Shown here in pieces: positions 24,660 through 35,457 of a stretch of 64,000 nucleotides of DNA (position 1 is its first letter; the number at the start of each line of letters is the position of its first letter). Where the stretch lies: contig JAULTD010000002.1 in the NCBI GenBank assembly GCA_038801785.1, positions 7,993 through 71,992 of the forward strand, in the 5' to 3' direction. The stretch comes from Candidatus Methanomethylicaceae archaeon GD_Cm_T35_P0_bin.15. GTDB lineage: Archaea > Thermoproteota > Methanomethylicia > Methanomethylicales > Methanomethylicaceae. The notes beneath the pieces were generated by a model that searched no databases, had not been told where the DNA came from, and saw only the letters and a program-made list of their open reading frames with translations. Made by a program: the position numbers and the translations under genes.

Positions 24660-25025
24660 ATGGCTGACCGCCCGCGGCTGGTGCTTTTGATGGTGGCCAT
24701 TCAGGCAGCCTTTGTAGCAATCAACCTGAGCATGCCGTTCCTCACCGGAAGCTTCCTTTCGTATACATACCTCGATTTCCTGATGGCCTACCTGACCGCC
24801 ATAATCGAGCTGATCCTTGTCGTGGGGTTCCTGAGAGGCTCCAAGTGGGCGTGGTTCGCCGGCCTCTTCTACAGCGGCCTCTCAGTGCTGATGTACGCCG
24901 TCTCATACCTCTCCGTCCCCTCGGTGTTCTACATAATCCTGATATTCATGCGTATTGTGGTGATGGCCTCGCTGAGGAGCAGGAACGTCCGAGCCTACTT
25001 TGACATCACCCGGTTCACTCGATGA
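24660..25025 (+). CDS. hypothetical integral membrane protein
   Basis: 121 aa with four hydrophobic segments. Confidence 0.5.
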   Translation: MADRPRLVLLMVAIQAAFVAINLSMPFLTGSFLSYTYLDFLMAYLTAIIELILVVGFLRGSKWAWFAGLFYSGLSVLMYAVSYLSVPSVFYIILIFMRIVVMASLRSRNVRAYFDITRFTR

Positions 25026-25698
25026 GCGGGAATACCTCCTCCCTTATATATGAGAGGAACTCCGCCTCCTGGATCTCGCTGAACGCGGTCACCACCGAGC
25101 TCCTCGTGACGCCTGCTACTATGCCATACCTCTTGGATTTGAAGACTATGTACCAGATGACGCCGTGGCTCAGGTAGTCGTTGTAGAGCGCGGTGTTGGC
25201 CAAGCCCGTACCGTATAGCGAGAGCTTGTCGACATTAGGTATATCGACACCGTCGAAGAAGATCACCTTCGTATCGTCGGGGTTTGCCTCATGGAACGTC
25301 TTCAGCGTCTCCGGGAGGATCTTGGCCTCGACGATACCGCCTGTGGTGATAAAGAGTATCCTGCTCAGCTCATTGGCTATGTTGTTGGCAACCCTCTTCT
25401 TCTCCAGCACAATCAGGAGCGTCCTATCGCCGTTCTTGACGAAGAGGAAAGGCGCCTCAAGGGTCCTGACGACCAGCCTCTCCCCCTCCCTGTGGGCGAC
25501 CGTGAACGGGATGTCCTGCGAGAAGACGCCCTGCAGCGAGTCCGGGGTCAGGGCGAGCCTGTCTATCTCTGTGATGAGGTTGAACTTGTGCTCGTTCTGG
25601 GCATATTCCTCTTCCTTCCTGTACTCTTTCAGTTTTGCCGATATAGTCGGGAGGTCGATCTCCTCCCTGACTTTAAAGACCTTGCCAGCCAAAACCAT
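25015..25698 (-). CDS. hypothetical protein, co-transcribed downstream of topoisomerase IB
   Basis: 227 aa from ATG 25698 (the track opens at TTG 25743). No family recognised. Contains GDRTLLIVLEKK (D-x7-E-x-K), weakly reminiscent of PD-(D/E)xK cores. Confidence 0.55.
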   Translation of the reverse strand: MVLAGKVFKVREEIDLPTISAKLKEYRKEEEYAQNEHKFNLITEIDRLALTPDSLQGVFSQDIPFTVAHREGERLVVRTLEAPFLFVKNGDRTLLIVLEKKRVANNIANELSRILFITTGGIVEAKILPETLKTFHEANPDDTKVIFFDGVDIPNVDKLSLYGTGLANTALYNDYLSHGVIWYIVFKSKRYGIVAGVTRSSVVTAFSEIQEAEFLSYIREEVFPLIE

Positions 25699-25808
25699 CC
25701 TGAACGCCCCACCCCTCTGTTGAGGGCGCTTTAATATAAGCAATGTCCCGCAAGCCCCATTGCACGGATAAGCGCATGGAATAGGACGGGGAGGTAAAAG
25801 GGCCAGGC

Positions 25809-27326
25809 TCAGCTCTCCTTGTCGATCCAGCCGAACCTCCTCTGCAGAGACTTGTTGTAGTAAAGCTTCCAGTCGTAATCGATCCTCCTCCCCCAGTTCG
25901 CGTAGACCCTGGGATCGATATAATTCTTCAGCGAGGTGTTGAGATTATAGTCCCGGGTAGCGGTTATGGCCTTTATCCTCAGTTCGAGCTCCCTGATCCT
26001 ATCCCTCTTGGCGTTCTTCTCCTTCAGGGCCCTGAGCCTCTCCCTCTTCTTCTCGAGCGACTCTTCCCAGTTCTTCGGCATCTTCCTCTTGTGGTTGCAG
26101 ACTATGGCTGCCTGCAGGTTTGCCATTGTGGCATAATACCTCTTGACGTAGGCGGGGTCCTCCGGCTTGACCTTCGCCTTCTCAAGCTCGCCCTTGGCGG
26201 TTATCGAGGCATGATAGGTCCTGAAGACCTTTGCCGAGAGCCCCGGCATCACCTCTGCGAGGTAGGCGTTGACCCTCTGGGACCTGATACCGTTGAAGAG
26301 GGTGCCGTTGCCCTCCTTCACGTACTCCATAAGGTTGTCCACTACCGGCTCCTGTGGCATAATCGTGCAGTTCCACCTGACGCAGTCCTTTCCCAAGAAA
26401 TCGAAATTGACCGATCCGTCCGGTCTGAACTTGATGTGCTCTGCCCTCAGGGTTGTTGCACCGACGGTATCTGCCTCATCGTCCCCCTTCTCATCGCCCA
26501 CCCTCATCTTGAGGTGATCGATCAGATAGCAGACCGTCGCGACCTTCCTCAGTGTGGGGTCCCTTGACCTGAGCCCGTCAAGGATGTGCTTCCTCACCTC
26601 CCTGATCTTCTTCTCCAGCTCCCACGCCTTGTCAAACTTCTCCACATCCCTTACCTGCTTTATGTACGCTGTATCGGAGAGCCAGACATACTTCATCTTG
26701 CCTCTCAGCTTGTCCTTCCACCTCGCGACCCAGAGCGAGGAGGGGTCAAAGAGGACTGCCCCCCACCTACCGCCGTTCGGCGGTTCGGGCACCTTGGCGT
26801 CGGGGGAGAGGTTCAGCGTGATATCTTCTGCCTTGAGGCCGGGTTTCCACACCCCCCTCATGGGGTGCTCCCCCCTGCCCATGAATATCGAGGCCGGTTC
26901 AACCATATAGTTGCTGATCTCCATCGGCATGCCATTGACATAGGCGAAGCCGTACTTCTGCCTGTTCTCCTCTCTGATCCTCTTCCTCTCGGCGGCGAGA
27001 GCCTTCCTCTCCTCCCTGCTCATCCCCTCCCTCTTCGCCCTCTCCGACTCTAGCCACTTCACGATCTGCGAAAAATCGAAATCGTCGGGGCCGACCGCCT
27101 CACTTATCCCCAGCGCCTTGCCGAAGTCGGCGAAGAAGTTCCTCACGAAGACCTTGTCCTTGACGTAATCGGTGCTGAGCTTCCTTGCCCAGGCGACAGC
27201 CATCTCCTCCTGATCCGGGGTCAGCGCCAGCTCCCTTCCCCTGAAGGTGATCCTGAAGCCCAGCGGCTTGTAGACCGGTATCAGCACGCCGTTAGTGATC
27301 AGCTGCCTGACCTCGATCTTTTCCAT
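25809..27326 (-). CDS. eukaryote-type DNA topoisomerase IB
   Basis: 505 aa. IFMGRGEHPMRG, DTVGATTLR, FDFLGKD, KVFRTYHASIT, AIVCNHKR and the C-terminal catalytic-Tyr context LNTSLKNYIDPRVY align motif by motif with eukaryotic Topo I. Confidence 0.92.
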   Translation of the reverse strand: MEKIEVRQLITNGVLIPVYKPLGFRITFRGRELALTPDQEEMAVAWARKLSTDYVKDKVFVRNFFADFGKALGISEAVGPDDFDFSQIVKWLESERAKREGMSREERKALAAERKRIREENRQKYGFAYVNGMPMEISNYMVEPASIFMGRGEHPMRGVWKPGLKAEDITLNLSPDAKVPEPPNGGRWGAVLFDPSSLWVARWKDKLRGKMKYVWLSDTAYIKQVRDVEKFDKAWELEKKIREVRKHILDGLRSRDPTLRKVATVCYLIDHLKMRVGDEKGDDEADTVGATTLRAEHIKFRPDGSVNFDFLGKDCVRWNCTIMPQEPVVDNLMEYVKEGNGTLFNGIRSQRVNAYLAEVMPGLSAKVFRTYHASITAKGELEKAKVKPEDPAYVKRYYATMANLQAAIVCNHKRKMPKNWEESLEKKRERLRALKEKNAKRDRIRELELRIKAITATRDYNLNTSLKNYIDPRVYANWGRRIDYDWKLYYNKSLQRRFGWIDKES

Positions 27327-27431: not shown

Positions 27432-27439
27432 TTTATAAG
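27432..27439 (+). promoter_or_regulatory. TATA-box-like element upstream of the SMC-like operon
   Basis: tttataag lies 40 nt upstream of ATG 27479. The same octamer precedes the AbrB-like ORF (31486) and a near copy precedes the MCP (56512). Confidence 0.4.
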
Positions 27440-27478: not shown

Positions 27479-29239
27479 ATGTCCAAGTTTACCATATCCG
27501 AAGTCATCCTTGAGAACTTCATGTCGTACGAGTATGCCAGGGTGCCCCTTAAACGCGGCCTGAACCTCATATCGGGCCCCAATGGCGCAGGAAAGTCCTC
27601 GATCCTCCTGGCGATATCCGTAGCGACCGGCCAGAGCTACACCGAGCGCTCGAGGAAGCTAGCCGACCTCATCCGCCGGGGTAAGGAGACCGCCCGCGTG
27701 ACCCTCGTCTTGGACAACAGTCCCGACGGAGGGAAGAGGCCTGTTCCCTTCATCAACAGCGACTCGGTGGCCGTCTCCAGGTACCTGAAGAAGGACGGGA
27801 CCTACTGGTTCGAGATCAACAACAGGGAAGCGGGCAAGTTCGACATCAACCGCCTCTTCAAGAGCGTAGGAATGAACCCCGACAACATGCTCGTGATAAT
27901 GCAGCAGAACATGATCGAGGAGTTCGCCATCACCTCGCCCGAGAAGAAGCTGAGGATGGTGGAGGAGGCCGTCGGCTTCTCGCAGTACCGGAAGGCGATC
28001 TACGATGCGGAGGAGAAGCTGAACCGCATACTCGGCGAGGAGGAGGCGACATCCCAGCTCCTCGTCAGCGCCGAGCAGACCCTCGCTTACTGGAAGGATC
28101 TATTCGACAGGTACAACGAGAAGAAGTCCCTCTCGGAGAAGAAGGCATACCTGGAGAGGGAAGCCGCCTGGGCCCAGATCCTGAAGAGCGAGCGGGCGCT
28201 GACAACGATCGAGGAGAGGCTGCGCCTCAAGGCGTCCCAGCTCGAGGACCTCAGGAAGAGGATAGCCGAGGCAGAAAAGTCTGCGGGGGGCCTCTGGGAG
28301 GATTACCTTGCGGAGAAGGAGTTCCTCCGGTCCCTCCTCTCGGACCGCGGCGGCGAGGACCAGATGAGGAAGCTCGGGGTGCTCGACGAGAAGATCGACG
28401 CGACGATCAAGGGCTATGTCGATGCGCGGGTCGAGGCCGCGGTGATGCGCTACCGCACAGAGGGGCTGGAGTCCGACATCAAAGAGTTGCGGTCATCGCT
28501 CAACGAAGCCAAGCAGAATTTGGAGGAGTCCAACAAGCTCAGGGAGAAGGCGGGCGACCGGATCGAGACCAGCAGATCCGCCCCCGAGATCACCGAGGAG
28601 CTGAAGTACGTCAACGCACACCTGCTCTCCCTCGGCGACGTCCCGGATGACGCGCCGTCCATGTATGAGGCCTACCTCAAGACCTACAACGAGCTAAAGG
28701 AGAAGGTGACCGTCGTCGGCGAGAACAGGAAGAGGACGATAGAGGAGCTCGATGAACGGAAGAAGGTCTGGAAGGGCATAATGGAGCGCCTCGTAGAGGA
28801 GATCAACCCGATCTACCGCGACGTCCTGGGGAGGGTCGGAGGCGTCGGATCGATCCGCCTCTCGGGGATGGAGGATCCGGATCGTGCGGGGATAGAGGTC
28901 ACTGTGGGGTTCAGGGGGGTCTCCCCCGTAGTGCTCGATGCCTATGCCCAGAGCGGCGGGGAGAGGGCGGTCTCGACGATGGCGTTCCTACTCTCGCTCC
29001 AGCACCAGCTCAAGTCGCCGGTTAGGGCGGTCGACGAGTTCGACGTGCATATGGATCCATCGAACAGGGAGGCGATGATGAGGATGCTCTTCTCGTTCAT
29101 GAGCGAGAACGCAGACGTCCAGTTCATAATGATCACGCCGAGTCAGCTAAGCGCTGTGGGTAAGTTCGCCAACATCGTCTTCGTCCAGAACGTGCGCGGG
29201 AGATCGGAGGTGGCAAAGGCTGCCATCGCCACGCCCTGA
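27479..29239 (+). CDS. short hinge-less SMC-like ATPase with SMC5/SMC6-like head motifs
   Basis: 586 aa. Walker A GPNGAGKS (33-40), Q-loop VIMQQN, signature QSGGERAVST (490-499), Walker B/D-loop VRAVDEFDVHMD, and QFIMITPSQL. Residues ~165-445 are heptad-rich and charged with a central SDRGGED break. No hinge domain and no CxxC hook. Confidence 0.85.
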   Translation: MSKFTISEVILENFMSYEYARVPLKRGLNLISGPNGAGKSSILLAISVATGQSYTERSRKLADLIRRGKETARVTLVLDNSPDGGKRPVPFINSDSVAVSRYLKKDGTYWFEINNREAGKFDINRLFKSVGMNPDNMLVIMQQNMIEEFAITSPEKKLRMVEEAVGFSQYRKAIYDAEEKLNRILGEEEATSQLLVSAEQTLAYWKDLFDRYNEKKSLSEKKAYLEREAAWAQILKSERALTTIEERLRLKASQLEDLRKRIAEAEKSAGGLWEDYLAEKEFLRSLLSDRGGEDQMRKLGVLDEKIDATIKGYVDARVEAAVMRYRTEGLESDIKELRSSLNEAKQNLEESNKLREKAGDRIETSRSAPEITEELKYVNAHLLSLGDVPDDAPSMYEAYLKTYNELKEKVTVVGENRKRTIEELDERKKVWKGIMERLVEEINPIYRDVLGRVGGVGSIRLSGMEDPDRAGIEVTVGFRGVSPVVLDAYAQSGGERAVSTMAFLLSLQHQLKSPVRAVDEFDVHMDPSNREAMMRMLFSFMSENADVQFIMITPSQLSAVGKFANIVFVQNVRGRSEVAKAAIATP

Positions 29240-29418
29240 AATCACCTTAACCTTTTTATCATTACATCTGCTTCAATATGATTGTTGCAGTTGTCACAGG
29301 GGGATTATCACGACTGCGGGTACACCGTCGGAATGGCATCCTGAAGCCTCCCGGCTCCAGCCTCCTACACGATCGGTCCCCGTCACGCAGCCCCGTCTCA
29401 GGCCGGAGGTGATGCGTA

Positions 29419-30348
29419 TTGCCGCCGCACCAGCATGAACACAACAAGGCCTTTTACGAGGAGCTGGCGAGGATAGTCAACCTCTGCCAGAGCATCAGGA
29501 CTAAGAGCGACGATCCGTTCCTGGTGGACGTCCCCCAGAAACTTGCGATCCTGAAGAAGCTCCTGCCGAAGTGGAAAGCTCTCGATGAGCTCCTCATGGA
29601 TGCCGAGGCGCTGAACGAGCTCTCGCTCATGGTCAAGCTCCAAAGCGACTGGGTCAGGCGGCGCGCAACCGGCCTCTTCATAGATCCGTTTCTGATAGAG
29701 GTCAAGGTCAAGATGCTGAGCAAGGAGCACCTGGCGTCGGCGCTCCTATCCTCCTGGAGGCCTCTGATCGCCTCAGATCAGCTGACACCGCGGCGCCTTG
29801 CGCAGGCGATCGAATACTGGAAGGTCCTCCTCCCCCTCTCGCAGAGGATGGCGGAGGCCGAGCCCGTCCAGGAGACTGAGCAGAAAGTGATGACCGTATC
29901 CGACCTCATCCGCCTAAAGTTCCTCTCCGACAAGGTCTTCAACGAAGAGGTAAGAGGTATCGAGGCCGAGCTGGTCCGCAGCGCCGGAGGGGCCCCTGTC
30001 GACTACTGGAGCTTCGTGATCCGGGATACCTACGACGAGACCGTTATGAGGGCGTATGCCCTCAGTTTCCTCATCTCCAACGGGCACGCCGACCTCATCA
30101 TAAACCCGGTCGAGGAGACCATAGATATAGCCCCTGTCACAGGACCTGCGCTCAAGAAGGCGGGCAAGTCCGTACCGATCTCTATCCCCTACGAGAAATG
30201 GATGGAGATGCGCGGCCGCGGCAAGATCAGCCCGGCCGGAGGGCCTGAGCCGGCTCCGGGAACTGGGGCAGGCGGAGGCTGTCCTCCCGGGGCCGGGTCC
30301 GGTAGGGGCGGGATGGACTCGGAGGAAGGCGAGGGGACGATTACTTAA
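29419..30348 (+). CDS. kleisin-like (ScpA/Nse4-like) protein, tentative
   Basis: 309 aa. TTG start 7 nt after ggaggtga. The N-terminal helical segment DAEALNELSLMVKLQSDWVRRR resembles the ScpA 'LvmaAtLlxiKSrxL' region. The C-terminal ETVMRAYALSFLISNGHADLIINPVEETIDI resembles the ScpA winged helix (vvtFLAlLEL...v.l.Q...f.eI.i). Gly/Pro-rich tail. Confidence 0.5.
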   Translation: MPPHQHEHNKAFYEELARIVNLCQSIRTKSDDPFLVDVPQKLAILKKLLPKWKALDELLMDAEALNELSLMVKLQSDWVRRRATGLFIDPFLIEVKVKMLSKEHLASALLSSWRPLIASDQLTPRRLAQAIEYWKVLLPLSQRMAEAEPVQETEQKVMTVSDLIRLKFLSDKVFNEEVRGIEAELVRSAGGAPVDYWSFVIRDTYDETVMRAYALSFLISNGHADLIINPVEETIDIAPVTGPALKKAGKSVPISIPYEKWMEMRGRGKISPAGGPEPAPGTGAGGGCPPGAGSGRGGMDSEEGEGTIT

Positions 30349-30363
30349 GCGAGGGTGTGACAG

Positions 30364-30975
30364 ATGAGCGAAGATGCATCCCTATCAAGGAAGATAAAGA
30401 AGGCAACCCAGCTCCTGATGTACCAGCACCACAGGGTCCCGGGCGCCAAGGGCTGGGAACTGAGGAGGGTGGTCGGGAAAGACTATATGAGGGTGATAAA
30501 GCTGCTCGAGAGGCGGCTCGAGGACCTTGGCCTCGAGGTGAAGATCGTCTACAAGGACGGAATTGACCTTCCGAACCCTACCGCGGAAGACTTTGAGCAG
30601 GCTACGTTCTACGTCCTGTCCAAATCCCCCCTCCAGATGGGCGAGATCTCGCTCTCCGGGTGGAGGATAGATACCCTGGCTGTCTTGGCGGCGTCGCTGG
30701 CCTATATAATGTCCAAGCAGGGGAAGGCGCCGAGGCGGGACGTCGAGGAACTCCTCATGGAGAAGTTCCCTGACTGGAAGGTCGACTACGACCTGAACCG
30801 CTTCATCAAGCGAGGCTATCTCGACGAGGACGACTCGGGCAACCTCTTTGTAGGATGGAGGACACGGGCAGAGATCGACCGGAAGAAGCTCCTCGAGATA
30901 GTCGCTGGGTCGGTCACAGAGCCCGCCCCAGAGGCTGAGACCGGGCCTGATACAGGCATTGAGACCACGACCTGA
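30364..30975 (+). CDS. tandem winged-helix 'kite'-like protein (ScpB / MAGE-Nse3-like), tentative
   Basis: 203 aa. First WH: KATQLLMYQHHRVPGAKGWELRRVVGKDYMRVIKLLERRLEDLGLEV. Second WH: DTLAVLAASLAYIMSKQGKAPRRDVEELL...RFIKRGYLDEDDSGNLFVGWRTRAEIDRKKLLE. The order and spacing parallel my recollection of the MAGE homology domain. Confidence 0.5.
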   Translation: MSEDASLSRKIKKATQLLMYQHHRVPGAKGWELRRVVGKDYMRVIKLLERRLEDLGLEVKIVYKDGIDLPNPTAEDFEQATFYVLSKSPLQMGEISLSGWRIDTLAVLAASLAYIMSKQGKAPRRDVEELLMEKFPDWKVDYDLNRFIKRGYLDEDDSGNLFVGWRTRAEIDRKKLLEIVAGSVTEPAPEAETGPDTGIETTT

Positions 30976-31715: not shown

Positions 31716-31911
31716 TCCCCTTCTAATTCTGATGGCATTCCTGCACATGCGATGCAAGCGATCCGGGACGTCAAGGGAGCGGTATGGCATAAGGGACATG
31801 GTGCTTGGATGCGGCGCGGGCGGGGCTAGATTTTTATGGCTTAGCGCCAAGTATTATATTGCCTTGGACGCTGTCTCCGCAGGGGGAACGGGTCGGCCAG
31901 TGCCGAGAACG

Positions 31912-32217
31912 ATGCAGCTACCGGGTTCGAAGCCGAGGAGGTCCTTCTATGAGATCCTCTCCGAGATCCTTATGGCTGCGCGGAGGAGGGGAGGGGCAAA
32001 CAAGACCCTGATAGTGTATAAGGCAAACCTCAACTTCACGAAAGCCGAGGAGTATCTGGGCCTGCTCGAGAGGAACGGATTCCTCGAATCATACCGCTGC
32101 GGGAGGACCATCTACAAGACGACGGATAAGGGCATCGAATTCCTCGCGCGATATAAAAGCCTCACTGACCTCGTCGGGAGCGGGAAGGTATCGTCGAACG
32201 GTCGTGGTTGCCCGTAG
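31912..32217 (+). CDS. winged helix-turn-helix regulator (COG3432/HTH_45-like)
   Basis: RRSFYEILSEILMAARRRGGANKTLIVYKANLNFTKAEEYLGLLERNGFLES...YKTTDKGIEFLARY. An internal ATG 31912 is preferred over the track start 31732. Confidence 0.7.
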   Translation: MQLPGSKPRRSFYEILSEILMAARRRGGANKTLIVYKANLNFTKAEEYLGLLERNGFLESYRCGRTIYKTTDKGIEFLARYKSLTDLVGSGKVSSNGRGCP

Positions 32218-32239: not shown

Positions 32240-35113
32240 TCAGGTGCCCGGGGGAGCCCTCCTCATCCTGCTCTTCAGGGCGCTCCTCTCCTCTTTCAGG
32301 ATGAGGTCCACTAGGTAGTCCAGGTCCCTGATCTCCGAGGTGATCAGAGTGATCGCCACCGGTCTGGGCAACCCCCTCGCGGCCAGGACGAGCGCGGCCA
32401 TCCCGCCATACCTCCCCACCAGCTCCCCGCTCTCGACTGCCGACTTGTACATCCTCCTGAACTTCTCCGCGACCTTGCCTGTCGCCGCCTTCTCGGCTGC
32501 CATCTGCTCCACTTCCGCCGGGTCATCTGTCAGGAGACCGATCCTCTCCGAGCCGCAGACCGGGCACCTCACCTCTCCCATGAATTTCTTGACCCTCGTG
32601 TTCTCAACGTACCCGAAGCAGTTTGTGCAGACCGCCACGCGCGACTCGTTGAGCAGCCTGGCTTTACCCGATTCGATGAGGAGGCGGCGCATCCTGTCCG
32701 CCGGCACCAGGTCCGTCTTCCAGCTCAGCTCCCTCATGCCTATCATGGAGATGGGTGAGAGCGGCTTGTCGGGATCGGTGACCACCACCCTGTACTTCCC
32801 CTCGCCCATATCCTTGACCACCCTTGCCGTGCCCTCCAAGTCCAGATCCTTGAAGAACACCTCCTTCATCCCCTCCCTGTAAATGACCGATCCCTTGAGC
32901 CCCTCTGCCAGCTGGTTGAGCCCGACGTCCTCAAAGTCTGCCTTCTTCTCCACTACCCCTGCCCTCTTCGCCACGTGGAGGAGCCTCCTCTTGAAGAGTC
33001 CTGTCCTCTCCACCGCGGCTTCGACCATACGCCCCACCTCGCCGGCATCCATCCCCTTCAGTATCTCCGCTATGACGTGGGGGCTTACTTCCGTCTTCAG
33101 GAAGATCCTGTACGCGTCCTGCGATGCGCCGACACCGCTCCCGGTCCTCTGGGCGAGCATGTAGCCGAGGAGCCTGGAGAGGGTCTTGTTTATCTGGAGC
33201 CCGAAGGCGCAGCTGATGATGACGTACCCCTCCCACTCCTCGACCGTCACCGTCCTGTCTGTAGGTACGGGGAATCCCCCCTCCACCTGCTCCCTGACCT
33301 CCCTCAGCGATCTCGCAAGGATCTCCGGTGAGACCCTGTACTCCTTCCGGATCTCCTCCGCCGCCTCTTCGACGGTCTTCCCCCCTGCCAGTATCTCAGC
33401 GCCCATGCCCCTTATGGCGCCGACCTCCTGCGCGATCTCGAAGGGCACCGGTATCTCGTCCCCGACCCAGTCGGGTATGGCCCCAGTAGGGTCGCTCTCC
33501 GCCCTGACATAGACCGAGTCCTTGAAGATGTGGATTATCTTCCAGGGCGATCCCCTGACTATGAACTTCACTCCCGGCTCCCCGTACTCCGCCACGAACG
33601 CCTCGTCGAGGGTGCCTATCGGCTCGTCCTTCTCCTCGTCCACGACGATGAAATGCTTCTCCTCGGGGATCATCGAGAGGTTCTCAAAGTAGTACTGGTA
33701 GAGGCCCTCCGAGGGGCGCGGCCTGAGCACTAGGTCGTTCTCCGGTATGTAGAGGGCAAGCCTCGGCCGCCTGGTGGACATGTACTCCAAGACCTCCACG
33801 ACCTCCTCCTCCTTCAGGTCCGCGAAGGGGTATGTCCTGCGCGAGATCTCCATGATATCGTCCACCGTCCACCTCTCCTCGTCGAGCAGGAGCCCGGCGA
33901 TCTGGTGGATCAGCACGTCCGTCGGCCTCTCCACTATCTCCACCTCCTCGAGCTCCTCCTTCAGCCCCCTCTTTACTATAACCACCGACTCGAGTGCGTC
34001 GTCAGAGTCTATCGTTATCACCTTCCCCTTCGAGGTCCCCCCCACCCAGTGCCCTGCCCTGCCGATCCTCTGCAGGAGCCGCGTGACCTGCCTGGGCGAG
34101 TTGTACTGGACGACTAGGTCGATGCTCCCTATGTCTATCCCGAGCTCCAGCGACGATGTGGAGACAACTCCCCTCAGCTCGCCCTTCTTCAGATCCGTCT
34201 CCACTCCCACCCTAGAGGATTTTGCGAGGCTGCCGTGGTGGATACCTACCGGTATGTCGATGTCCCACACCCTGAACCTGCTGGCGAGGACCTCCGCCTC
34301 CGACCTAGTGTTGGTGAAGATCAGCGTCGATCTGTGGCCGTCTATCAGCTCCCTTATCCTCCTGAGCCTCGCGGCCACCTCAGGGTAGGTGGCTATCCTC
34401 TCCGCGAGCATGGTGTCCTTCTGGCCCGCCTCGGGGAGCTCCACGTCTATGTCCATGCTCTTCGCCACAGAGACCCTGACGATCTCGCACTCCCTGTGAA
34501 CCCCGACTAGGAACTTTGCGACCTCACCCGGGGAGCCTATCGTCGCGGAGAGTCCGATGATCTGCGGCTCCGACTCCGTGATCCTCCTCAGCCTCTCGAG
34601 CGCGAAGGCGAGCTGGCTCCCCCTCTTGTCGTTCGTCAGCTCGTGAACCTCGTCGACCACGACCCACCTCACCTTGGCAAGGTGTCTCTTCATCGTCCTG
34701 CCAGGCAGGATCGCCTGGAGGGTCTCCGGCGTGGTTATCAGTATGTCCGGCGGGGCGAGCGCCTGTCTCCCCCTCTCCTTGACCTCTGTATCCCCGTGCC
34801 TGACCGAGACCTTCAGGTCGAGCTTGTTGCACCACCAAGTCAACCGCTCGAGCAGGTCCCTGTTGAGGGCCCTCAGGGGCGAGATGTAGAGCACCTTTAT
34901 GCCGCCCCTGCCACCCTCCCTCACCAACCTGTCCAGTATCGGGAGAAATGCTGCCTCGGTCTTCCCCGTCCCCGTCGGCGCGATGACCAGGACATTCTTT
35001 CCTCCGAGTATAAGCGGTATGGCGTCCCTCTGTATCTCTGTAAAGACCTTGAACCCTTTCTCCGCTACTATCCGCTGGACCGGTTTGGAGAGCTGCGATA
35101 ATATTCCGCTCAT
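32240..35113 (-). CDS. Lhr-type large superfamily-2 (DEVH) helicase
   Basis: About 957 aa. FTEIQRDAIPLILGGKNVLVIAPTGTGKTEAA, VVVDEVHEL, SAT, HHGSL and QRIGRAGH. The C-terminal region carries a zinc ribbon (CTNC...CPVCG). Confidence 0.9.
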   Translation of the reverse strand: MSGILSQLSKPVQRIVAEKGFKVFTEIQRDAIPLILGGKNVLVIAPTGTGKTEAAFLPILDRLVREGGRGGIKVLYISPLRALNRDLLERLTWWCNKLDLKVSVRHGDTEVKERGRQALAPPDILITTPETLQAILPGRTMKRHLAKVRWVVVDEVHELTNDKRGSQLAFALERLRRITESEPQIIGLSATIGSPGEVAKFLVGVHRECEIVRVSVAKSMDIDVELPEAGQKDTMLAERIATYPEVAARLRRIRELIDGHRSTLIFTNTRSEAEVLASRFRVWDIDIPVGIHHGSLAKSSRVGVETDLKKGELRGVVSTSSLELGIDIGSIDLVVQYNSPRQVTRLLQRIGRAGHWVGGTSKGKVITIDSDDALESVVIVKRGLKEELEEVEIVERPTDVLIHQIAGLLLDEERWTVDDIMEISRRTYPFADLKEEEVVEVLEYMSTRRPRLALYIPENDLVLRPRPSEGLYQYYFENLSMIPEEKHFIVVDEEKDEPIGTLDEAFVAEYGEPGVKFIVRGSPWKIIHIFKDSVYVRAESDPTGAIPDWVGDEIPVPFEIAQEVGAIRGMGAEILAGGKTVEEAAEEIRKEYRVSPEILARSLREVREQVEGGFPVPTDRTVTVEEWEGYVIISCAFGLQINKTLSRLLGYMLAQRTGSGVGASQDAYRIFLKTEVSPHVIAEILKGMDAGEVGRMVEAAVERTGLFKRRLLHVAKRAGVVEKKADFEDVGLNQLAEGLKGSVIYREGMKEVFFKDLDLEGTARVVKDMGEGKYRVVVTDPDKPLSPISMIGMRELSWKTDLVPADRMRRLLIESGKARLLNESRVAVCTNCFGYVENTRVKKFMGEVRCPVCGSERIGLLTDDPAEVEQMAAEKAATGKVAEKFRRMYKSAVESGELVGRYGGMAALVLAARGLPRPVAITLITSEIRDLDYLVDLILKEERSALKSRMRRAPPGT

Positions 35114-35457
35114 AAATGTAATGACGAGTACTTGTCCCCCCATAAATATCCTTTTCCCGTACCATCATAATCGGAAAGATCGACGGGGGACAGCGAGGGA
35201 AGCCAGTCCATATGCTGGCATTCTCGTGTAACGGCCGCTGATCTCGGGTTACGCCGCCCAGACCACCAAAGGGCACGCTGACCCCTTGCGCCCTCGGCTT
35301 CCCCCGGACCATGAATAGGCTCCCCTGCCGGCAGATCGTCGAATACACAAGGTATATCTGTGACTGATCACAGAAAGAAGACTGGGTCAGGTGCCCGGGC
35401 CGCCCAGCGGCTGATGATGAAAGCTGATTGCGGCCGTAGCATCAGGAGGCAAGCTGA

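Follow-up and report, generated by a model that had tools for sequence, protein, structure and literature searches.

The open reading frame at positions 30364..30975 (+ strand) of the window, this being the complete 64,000-nt stretch of archaeal DNA analyzed here, encodes a protein of 203 aa with an ATG start that we consider, with a probability of roughly 85%, to be the kite subunit of an archaeal SMC5/6-like complex and to be homologous to the protein from which eukaryotic Nse1 and Nse3/MAGE arose. Kites form a superfamily of kleisin-interacting tandem winged-helix (WH) proteins; the concept, as cited in PMC8665677, is said to originate from Palecek and Gruber in 2015, with ScpB and MukE reportedly being the bacterial and archaeal kites. 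The identification as an Nse1/Nse3-like subunit was based upon the open reading frame itself, an AF2 model, Foldseek searches and hhalign profile comparisons. The kite gene was found to be the last of three co-oriented genes, following those for an SMC-like ATPase and an Nse4-type kleisin, a combination here called the trio.

The kite ORF is a real and conserved gene, with 150 homologues found at E<=1e-3 in a word-indexed search. When one genome of each GTDB species was scanned, at least 562 of them contained relatives. The 150 homologues came from Methanomethylicia (Verstraetearchaeota), Bathyarchaeia and Nitrososphaeria, and the nearest relatives, all of them Methanomethylicaceae, were 70–77% identical to the window protein. 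In the public records, every one of these 150 homologues was listed as a 'hypothetical protein', having neither a functional name nor a precomputed Pfam domain. When a narrow kite family profile built from 38 sequences that were 40–75% identical (profile A1) was searched exhaustively, as an HMM, against 1.84 billion cluster representatives, 144 matches were obtained, a number showing that the family is compact. In the window, the ATG of the kite gene is located 15 nt past the stop codon of the kleisin gene (TAA, 30346–30348), and the intervening sequence contains GAGGGTG (30351..30357, + strand), a putative Shine–Dalgarno-like element ending 6 nt 5' of the ATG.

The AF2 model of the kite (pLDDT 79, with 38 homologues in the alignment) showed a tandem winged-helix fold, with the elements H-H-H-beta-beta occurring twice in succession before C-terminal helices. 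The first domain, WH-A, covered residues about 3–86 and the second, WH-B, residues about 102–163, followed by two short C-terminal helices at residues 165–180. The remaining tail (residues 185–203) was modeled as disordered, with a pLDDT below 50, and is a non-conserved segment of acidic, Pro and Thr residues. When the model was compared with the PDB using Foldseek, ranks 1–9 were all occupied by Nse3/MAGE or Nse1 chains, with E values of 4.9e-5 to 6.2e-3 and probabilities of 0.99–1.00. This included Xenopus Nse3 (7dg2_C, E 4.9e-5) and human MAGE-G1 (5hvq_D, E 7.1e-5), human Nse1 (5hvq_C, E 3.0e-4) and Xenopus Nse1 (7dg2_A, E 4.3e-4) at ranks 3 and 4, 7qcd_E at E 9.6e-4 and, among the later of the nine, chains of yeast Smc5/6 including Nse1 (7tve_C), together with MAGE-A4. 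The use of the human sequences as PDB queries confirmed which chains were Nse3 and which were Nse1. The TM-scores of the kite model to Nse1 and Nse3 were modest, at 0.36–0.52. After rank 9 came cullin WHB, STK19 and Rpc5, which matched a single WH domain at a TM-score of about 0.25, while MukE appeared at ranks 19 and 31 with E values of 0.03–0.07 and ScpB was absent from the top 50 PDB matches. By this ranking, the structure of the kite model is nearer to that of Nse1/Nse3 than to those of ScpB, MukE or generic winged-helix (wHTH) proteins, and the structural comparison with MAGE-G1/Nse3, ScpB and MukE that the initial annotation had proposed thus came out on the side of the MAGE and Nse proteins.

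As it contains two WH domains as well as conserved basic residues, and gave weak Foldseek matches to MarR and IclR, the protein might instead be regarded as a stand-alone winged-helix transcription regulator that adjoins SMC-like genes by chance. Those matches, however, had E values of 0.09 or higher and TM-scores of about 0.2, and covered only one WH domain. The initial annotation had named best matches to ScpB-like proteins or generic regulators as speaking against its proposal, and neither of these gave the best match here. The gene context was also hard to reconcile with a chance neighbourhood. A kleisin gene was present in 80 of 80 related loci, which spanned Methanomethylicia, Bathyarchaeia, Nitrososphaeria and Hydrothermarchaeota, and it was positioned immediately upstream of the kite gene in 78 of them, with the ATPase gene present, upstream of the kleisin gene, in 74. 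The genes of the trio often abutted or overlapped in these loci, with stop and start codons overlapping, and the sizes of their products were uniform (570–700 aa for the ATPase, about 272 aa for the kleisin and about 196 aa for the kite). As the best matches in both sequence and structure were furthermore the kites of SMC5/6, we find a stand-alone regulator very improbable.

At the level of the single window protein, the sequence comparisons gave little. Pfam produced no match for it, leaving it below the curated thresholds of MAGE (PF01454, 25 bits) and SMC_Nse1 (PF07574, 23.3 bits), and a vertebrate MAGE HMM gave 2.6 bits (E 1.8), being third among the 529 stop-to-stop segments of the window and not significant. 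The MAGE resemblance of this one sequence, when taken alone, would therefore seem to be at the level of chance. A match to sucrose-phosphate phosphatase in NCBIfam was discarded as spurious (19.5 bits, with the cutoff being 184). Profile A1 likewise found no Nse protein among the PDB sequences and had no similarity to a MAGE profile, and none of its 144 matches among the 1.84 billion representatives was evidently eukaryotic; HMMER alone hence gave no bridge to Nse1/Nse3.

The Nse signal became visible only once divergent representatives had been added, in a profile of the diverse kite family (A4) comprising 41 sequences and including 50%-cluster representatives that the exhaustive search had given. 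When A4 was aligned using hhalign with a MAGE-domain profile of 14 sequences (A3), the probability was 94.3% (E 1.1e-7) over 162 colinear columns that extended across both WH domains. The initial annotation had pointed to three segments of the ORF as following one another in the order seen in MAGE domains, and its three strings, KATQLLMYQHHRVPGAKGWELRRVVGKDYMRVIKLLERRLEDLGLEV, LAVLAASLAYIMSKQGKAPRRDVEELL and FIKRGYLDED..LFVGWRTRAEIDRKKLLE, were all present in the kite. That order was reproduced over these 162 columns, in which the N-terminal helix with its LL was paired with LVQFLL, LAVLAASLAYIMSKQGKA with GLLMIVLGLIFMKGNT, and FIKRGYL...GWRTRAE with FVRQRYLEY...WGPRT..ET. Against PDB sequences, the best natural matches of A4 were Xenopus Nse3 (6e-4) and MAGE-G1 (1.3e-3), followed by NSMCE3 (7.9e-3) and NSMCE1 (0.011–0.014). 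The top match of that search was a designed helical-repeat protein, which we rejected as an artefact of one helix having been matched weakly four times over. On members of the kite family, the MAGE and Nse1 HMMs reached 24 and 21 bits, respectively, and Pfam matched SMC_Nse1 in 9 of 42 divergent members and MAGE, below threshold, in 2 of 42. One member, P0170, was the only one to exceed the curated cutoff of SMC_Nse1 (27.1 against 23.3 bits, E 4.7e-6), and it was also matched by the kite family profile at 3.6e-27, thereby providing a transitive link between the kite family and Nse1. A direct comparison of A4 with an Nse1 alignment of two sequences, which is too thin a template, was weak (hhalign 6.8%, E 0.005) and is given no weight here. 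Judged from these comparisons, the MAGE resemblance is real at the level of the kite family profile.

The same profile could be used for weighing whether the kite is instead of the ScpB type and belongs to a canonical archaeal Smc–ScpAB condensin. ScpB is also a tandem-WH protein of roughly 190 aa encoded after a kleisin, and one distant member of the kite family gave a very weak match to Pfam SMC_ScpB (E 0.072). Set against an ScpB profile from four species, with sequences taken from PDB entries, A4 gave an hhalign probability of 0.8% over 35 columns, as compared with the 94.3% for MAGE, so that the profile comparison also bore out the proposed MAGE relationship. An ScpB HMM, moreover, reached at most 0.8 bits on each of the 41 kite family members.

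The partner proteins bear on the same question. The kleisin gene (29419..30348, + strand; 309 aa as listed, with a TTG start) is preceded by a putative Shine–Dalgarno-like element, GGAGGTGA (29406..29413, + strand). Its product matched Pfam Nse4_C only weakly (E 0.011), and the same domain was matched by 26 of 26 orthologues, the best of them at 5.7e-6. The PDB proteins matched by a profile of these 26 orthologues were exclusively of the Nse4 kind, including human NSMCE4B/EID3 (3.3e-5) and yeast Nse4 (1.2e-4), and no ScpA was found in that search. By sequence, the partner kleisin is accordingly of the Nse4 type, and not the ScpA expected for an ScpB-type kite. The window kleisin carries a low-complexity Gly/Pro/Ala extension of about 40 residues at its C-terminus (30229–30348), which is missing in most orthologues.

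The third gene of the trio, located at 27479..29239 (+ strand), encodes an SMC-like ATPase of 586 aa (Pfam SMC_N, 3.1e-32) that is possibly related to SMC5/6. In phmmer searches of the PDB, this protein matched Smc5 at 2.7e-28 and Smc6 at 5e-25, marginally ahead of prokaryotic Smc at 3.6e-24; in Foldseek, its model gave the Pyrococcus Smc head first, and Smc5/6 was not favoured over canonical Smc. The AF2 model (pLDDT 82) had head segments at residues 1–165 and 455–578, connected by a coiled-coil hairpin at 168–451, which consisted of a helix at 168–288, a turn of four residues (289–292) and return helices reaching to residue 451, without any globular hinge domain. Among 30 homologues the arm region was 279–361 aa, making the arms about a third of the normal length, with no CxxC zinc hook in any of these 30, and no precomputed SMC_hinge Pfam domain was found among the 120 ATPase homologues listed. 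With its 586 aa and no hinge, the partner ATPase differs from the archaeal Smc of roughly 1170 aa. Together with the profile comparisons, the ScpB-less Foldseek list and the Nse4-type kleisin, this largely refutes an ScpB-type kite, which we regard as the least probable of the alternatives considered.

In the window, a possible archaeal TATA box, TTTATAA (27432..27438, + strand), is located about 41–47 nt 5' of the ATG of the ATPase gene, in the divergent intergenic region that this gene has in common with a topoisomerase IB gene. A non-coding spacer of 179 nt, with a T5 run at 29253–29257, separates the stop codon of the ATPase gene from the start of the kleisin gene (29240–29418), unlike in most related loci, where the two genes abut or overlap. 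In the window genome the kleisin and kite genes may be transcribed separately from that of the ATPase, as far as the sequence suggests.

The short arms of the ATPase resemble those of LmuB, and in PADLOC this protein matched LmuB at 2.2e-22 and mad3 at 6.9e-33. Combined with the weak structural match of the kite to MukE at rank 19, and with eukaryotic SMC5/6 itself being reported to restrict extrachromosomal DNA (PMC9458440), this could suggest that the protein is a JetB- or MukE-like kite of an anti-plasmid or anti-virus SMC defence system such as Wadjet, Mks or Lamassu. PADLOC, however, gave no match for the kleisin or the kite, the ATPase matched only generic SMC/ABC-like models in that collection, its scores against defence ATPase models being below those against Smc5/6, and the locus held no nuclease of the JetD, MksG or LmuA type. 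Since neither kleisin nor kite was matched and such a nuclease was lacking, a Wadjet, Mks or Lamassu type of system is unlikely. The distribution of the trio is also unlike that of a mobile defence island, as it occurs in 562 or more species genomes and has a housekeeping context that is stable, with an Lhr helicase, a topoisomerase IB and a conserved gene of 242 aa.

We thus return to the kite of an SMC5/6-like complex, with regards to its closer relation to Nse1 and Nse3. The initial annotation had proposed a MAGE/Nse3-type kite; its placement on the Nse1/Nse3 branch was upheld by the fold, the profile comparisons and the Nse4-type partner, but the specific assignment to Nse3 was not, as Nse1 scored about equally. 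Each locus examined had just one kite gene, positioned after that of the kleisin, and the kite carries no RING or Cys-rich extension. With one kite per locus and no RING, the protein is an orthologue of neither Nse3 alone nor Nse1 alone. Affinities to Nse3 and to Nse1 could not be separated with the present data, and 'Nse1/3-like, pre-duplication' is the better label, considering the about equal scores and the single kite gene per locus, and also that the window protein falls short of the Pfam threshold for MAGE, which argues against 'Nse3-type'.

With the Nse3/MAGE domain (PF01454; 5hvq_D, 7dg2_C), the archaeal kite has in common the tandem of WH-A and WH-B, an Nse4 kleisin partner, a hydrophobic helix 1 in WH-B and, past the wing, a W..RA..[ED] motif. 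It differs in having an identity of about 19% or less, and in being shorter, with neither the N-terminal extension nor the insertion of 10–14 residues before the WGPRA motif. Eukaryotic Nse1 (PF07574; 5hvq_C, 7dg2_A) is likewise a tandem-WH kite, but its C-terminal RING has no counterpart in the archaeal protein, which, disordered tail aside, ends about 20 residues past WH-B. ScpB and MukE share with it the architecture at the superfamily level and a presumed role as a kleisin-bound dimer; their kleisin partners are, however, ScpA and MukF rather than an Nse4-type protein, and the similarity was absent for the ScpB profile and weak, in structural terms, for MukE.

The initial annotation had also regarded MAGE-type kites as confined to eukaryotes and an archaeal one as unusual, which is out of date. 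Van Hooff, Raas, Tromer and Eme reported that archaea of the TACK and Asgard groups encode Nse1/3-like kites beside Nse4-related kleisins, with the two genes being neighbours in 31 of 31 cases, and proposed a duplication of the whole complex in the ancestor common to TACK and Asgard archaea (10.1101/2024.01.07.573240). In their Supplementary Table 3, the Methanomethylicia, a Methanomethylicaceae genome among them, are entered with one Nse1_Nse3_related kite each and without any ScpB-like kite, and the Bathyarchaeia with one Nse1_Nse3_related kite each, having an Nse4-related gene as neighbour (10.1101/2024.01.07.573240). An archaeal Nse1/3-like kite in this lineage and operon is consequently already known from that 2024/2025 preprint. 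The window kite does not differ in kind from those reported there, with the operon again consisting of an SMC (SMC5/6-related in that study), an Nse4-related kleisin and a kite; it is not named in that study, the table of which gives counts, and the likeness is one of lineage and operon. Earlier, Yoshinaga and Inagaki described 'SMC5/6-related' SMC homologues in TACK archaea, including Verstraetearchaeota, that grouped with SMC5/6 in phylogenies, and Nse1/Nse3 could not be traced by them (PMC8665677). Our literature search found no further paper and no experimental work on archaeal Nse1/3-like kites, and neither the short arms nor the loss of the hinge of the ATPase were discussed by van Hooff et al. 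or by Yoshinaga and Inagaki. What the window adds is an independent confirmation using structure and profile comparison, the observation that this family still is a 'hypothetical protein' lacking a Pfam domain in public databases, and the finding of a short-armed, hingeless partner ATPase.

By analogy with Nse1–Nse3–Nse4 and ScpAB, two copies of the kite would bind to the Nse4-like kleisin in its central region, and the short SMC-like ATPase, as a homodimer, would have its two heads bridged by the N- and C-terminal domains of that kleisin. As there is only one kite gene per locus and no RING domain, these two copies would be expected to form a homodimer and not the Nse1–Nse3 type of heterodimer known from eukaryotes. 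Such a kite dimer might form a lid that closes a DNA-clamping compartment atop the ATP-engaged heads, with DNA probably contacted through basic residues of helix 3 and the wing of WH-B, and the complex as a whole would by the same analogy act in chromosome maintenance or repair. Basic residues that hardly vary within the kite family, namely R146, K/R149, R166 and R168 in the pattern RFI[KR]xGYL...GWRTRAE, are positioned in helix 3 of WH-B and after the wing and are candidate DNA contacts. The conserved basic residues that Nse3 carries in helix 3 and the wing of its WH-B bind dsDNA and are essential (PMC4756808).

Among prokaryotes, the archaeal trios are those most closely related to the SMC5/6 core of eukaryotes (Smc5/6, Nse4 and Nse1/Nse3), and thereby bear on the origin of eukaryotic chromosome-maintenance complexes, a point already made in the literature. 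They also provide a small three-gene system for biochemistry of MAGE-type kites. We put forward, as a tentative and rather doubtful suggestion, that the SMC5/6-like complex of TACK archaea is a minimal hingeless machine, with arm strands of about 120–180 residues that end in a tight hairpin, no zinc hook, an Nse4-like kleisin and a homodimeric kite. In that case, eukaryotic SMC5/6 may descend from a short DNA clamp, more like RecN, Rad50 or Lamassu, and not from a long-armed loop extruder; alternatively, these lineages shortened a long-armed ancestor. Considering that the table of van Hooff et al. holds no ScpB-like kite for Methanomethylicales, the trio may be the sole SMC–kleisin–kite complex of that order.

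Several neighbouring genes were noted in addition. The ORF at 25015–25743 (− strand), of 242 aa, was found near the trio in 23 of 80 loci, from Methanomethylicia, Bathyarchaeia, Nitrososphaeria and Hydrothermarchaeota, and outside Methanomethylicaceae it was usually located directly upstream of the ATPase gene and divergently transcribed. It gave no significant match in Pfam, NCBIfam, PADLOC or PDB sequences, with an MtrA match (E 0.078) being at chance level, and its product is a possible fourth functional partner of the trio. The ORF at 25809–27326 (− strand), divergent from the ATPase gene at a distance of 152 nt, codes for a DNA topoisomerase IB of the eukaryote type (Pfam Topoisom_I 8e-68, Topoisom_I_N 2e-56). 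This adjacency was seen in 9 of 80 loci, all of these being among the closest relatives (within L001–L010, mostly Methanomethylicia). About 750 nt downstream of the kite gene is an ORF (31732–32217, + strand) with an Sso10a-family chromatin-protein/HTH_45 domain at residues 69–147, which scored 70.8 bits in NCBIfam, where the cutoff is 60; residues 1–68 of this ORF as listed probably are an over-extension. Finally, a large DEAD/DEAH helicase of the Lhr type (DEAD, DEAD_assoc, WH_Lhr) is encoded at 32240–35143 (− strand), downstream of and convergent with the trio, and was seen near the trio in 19 of 80 loci from several classes, which hints at a DNA-repair neighbourhood.
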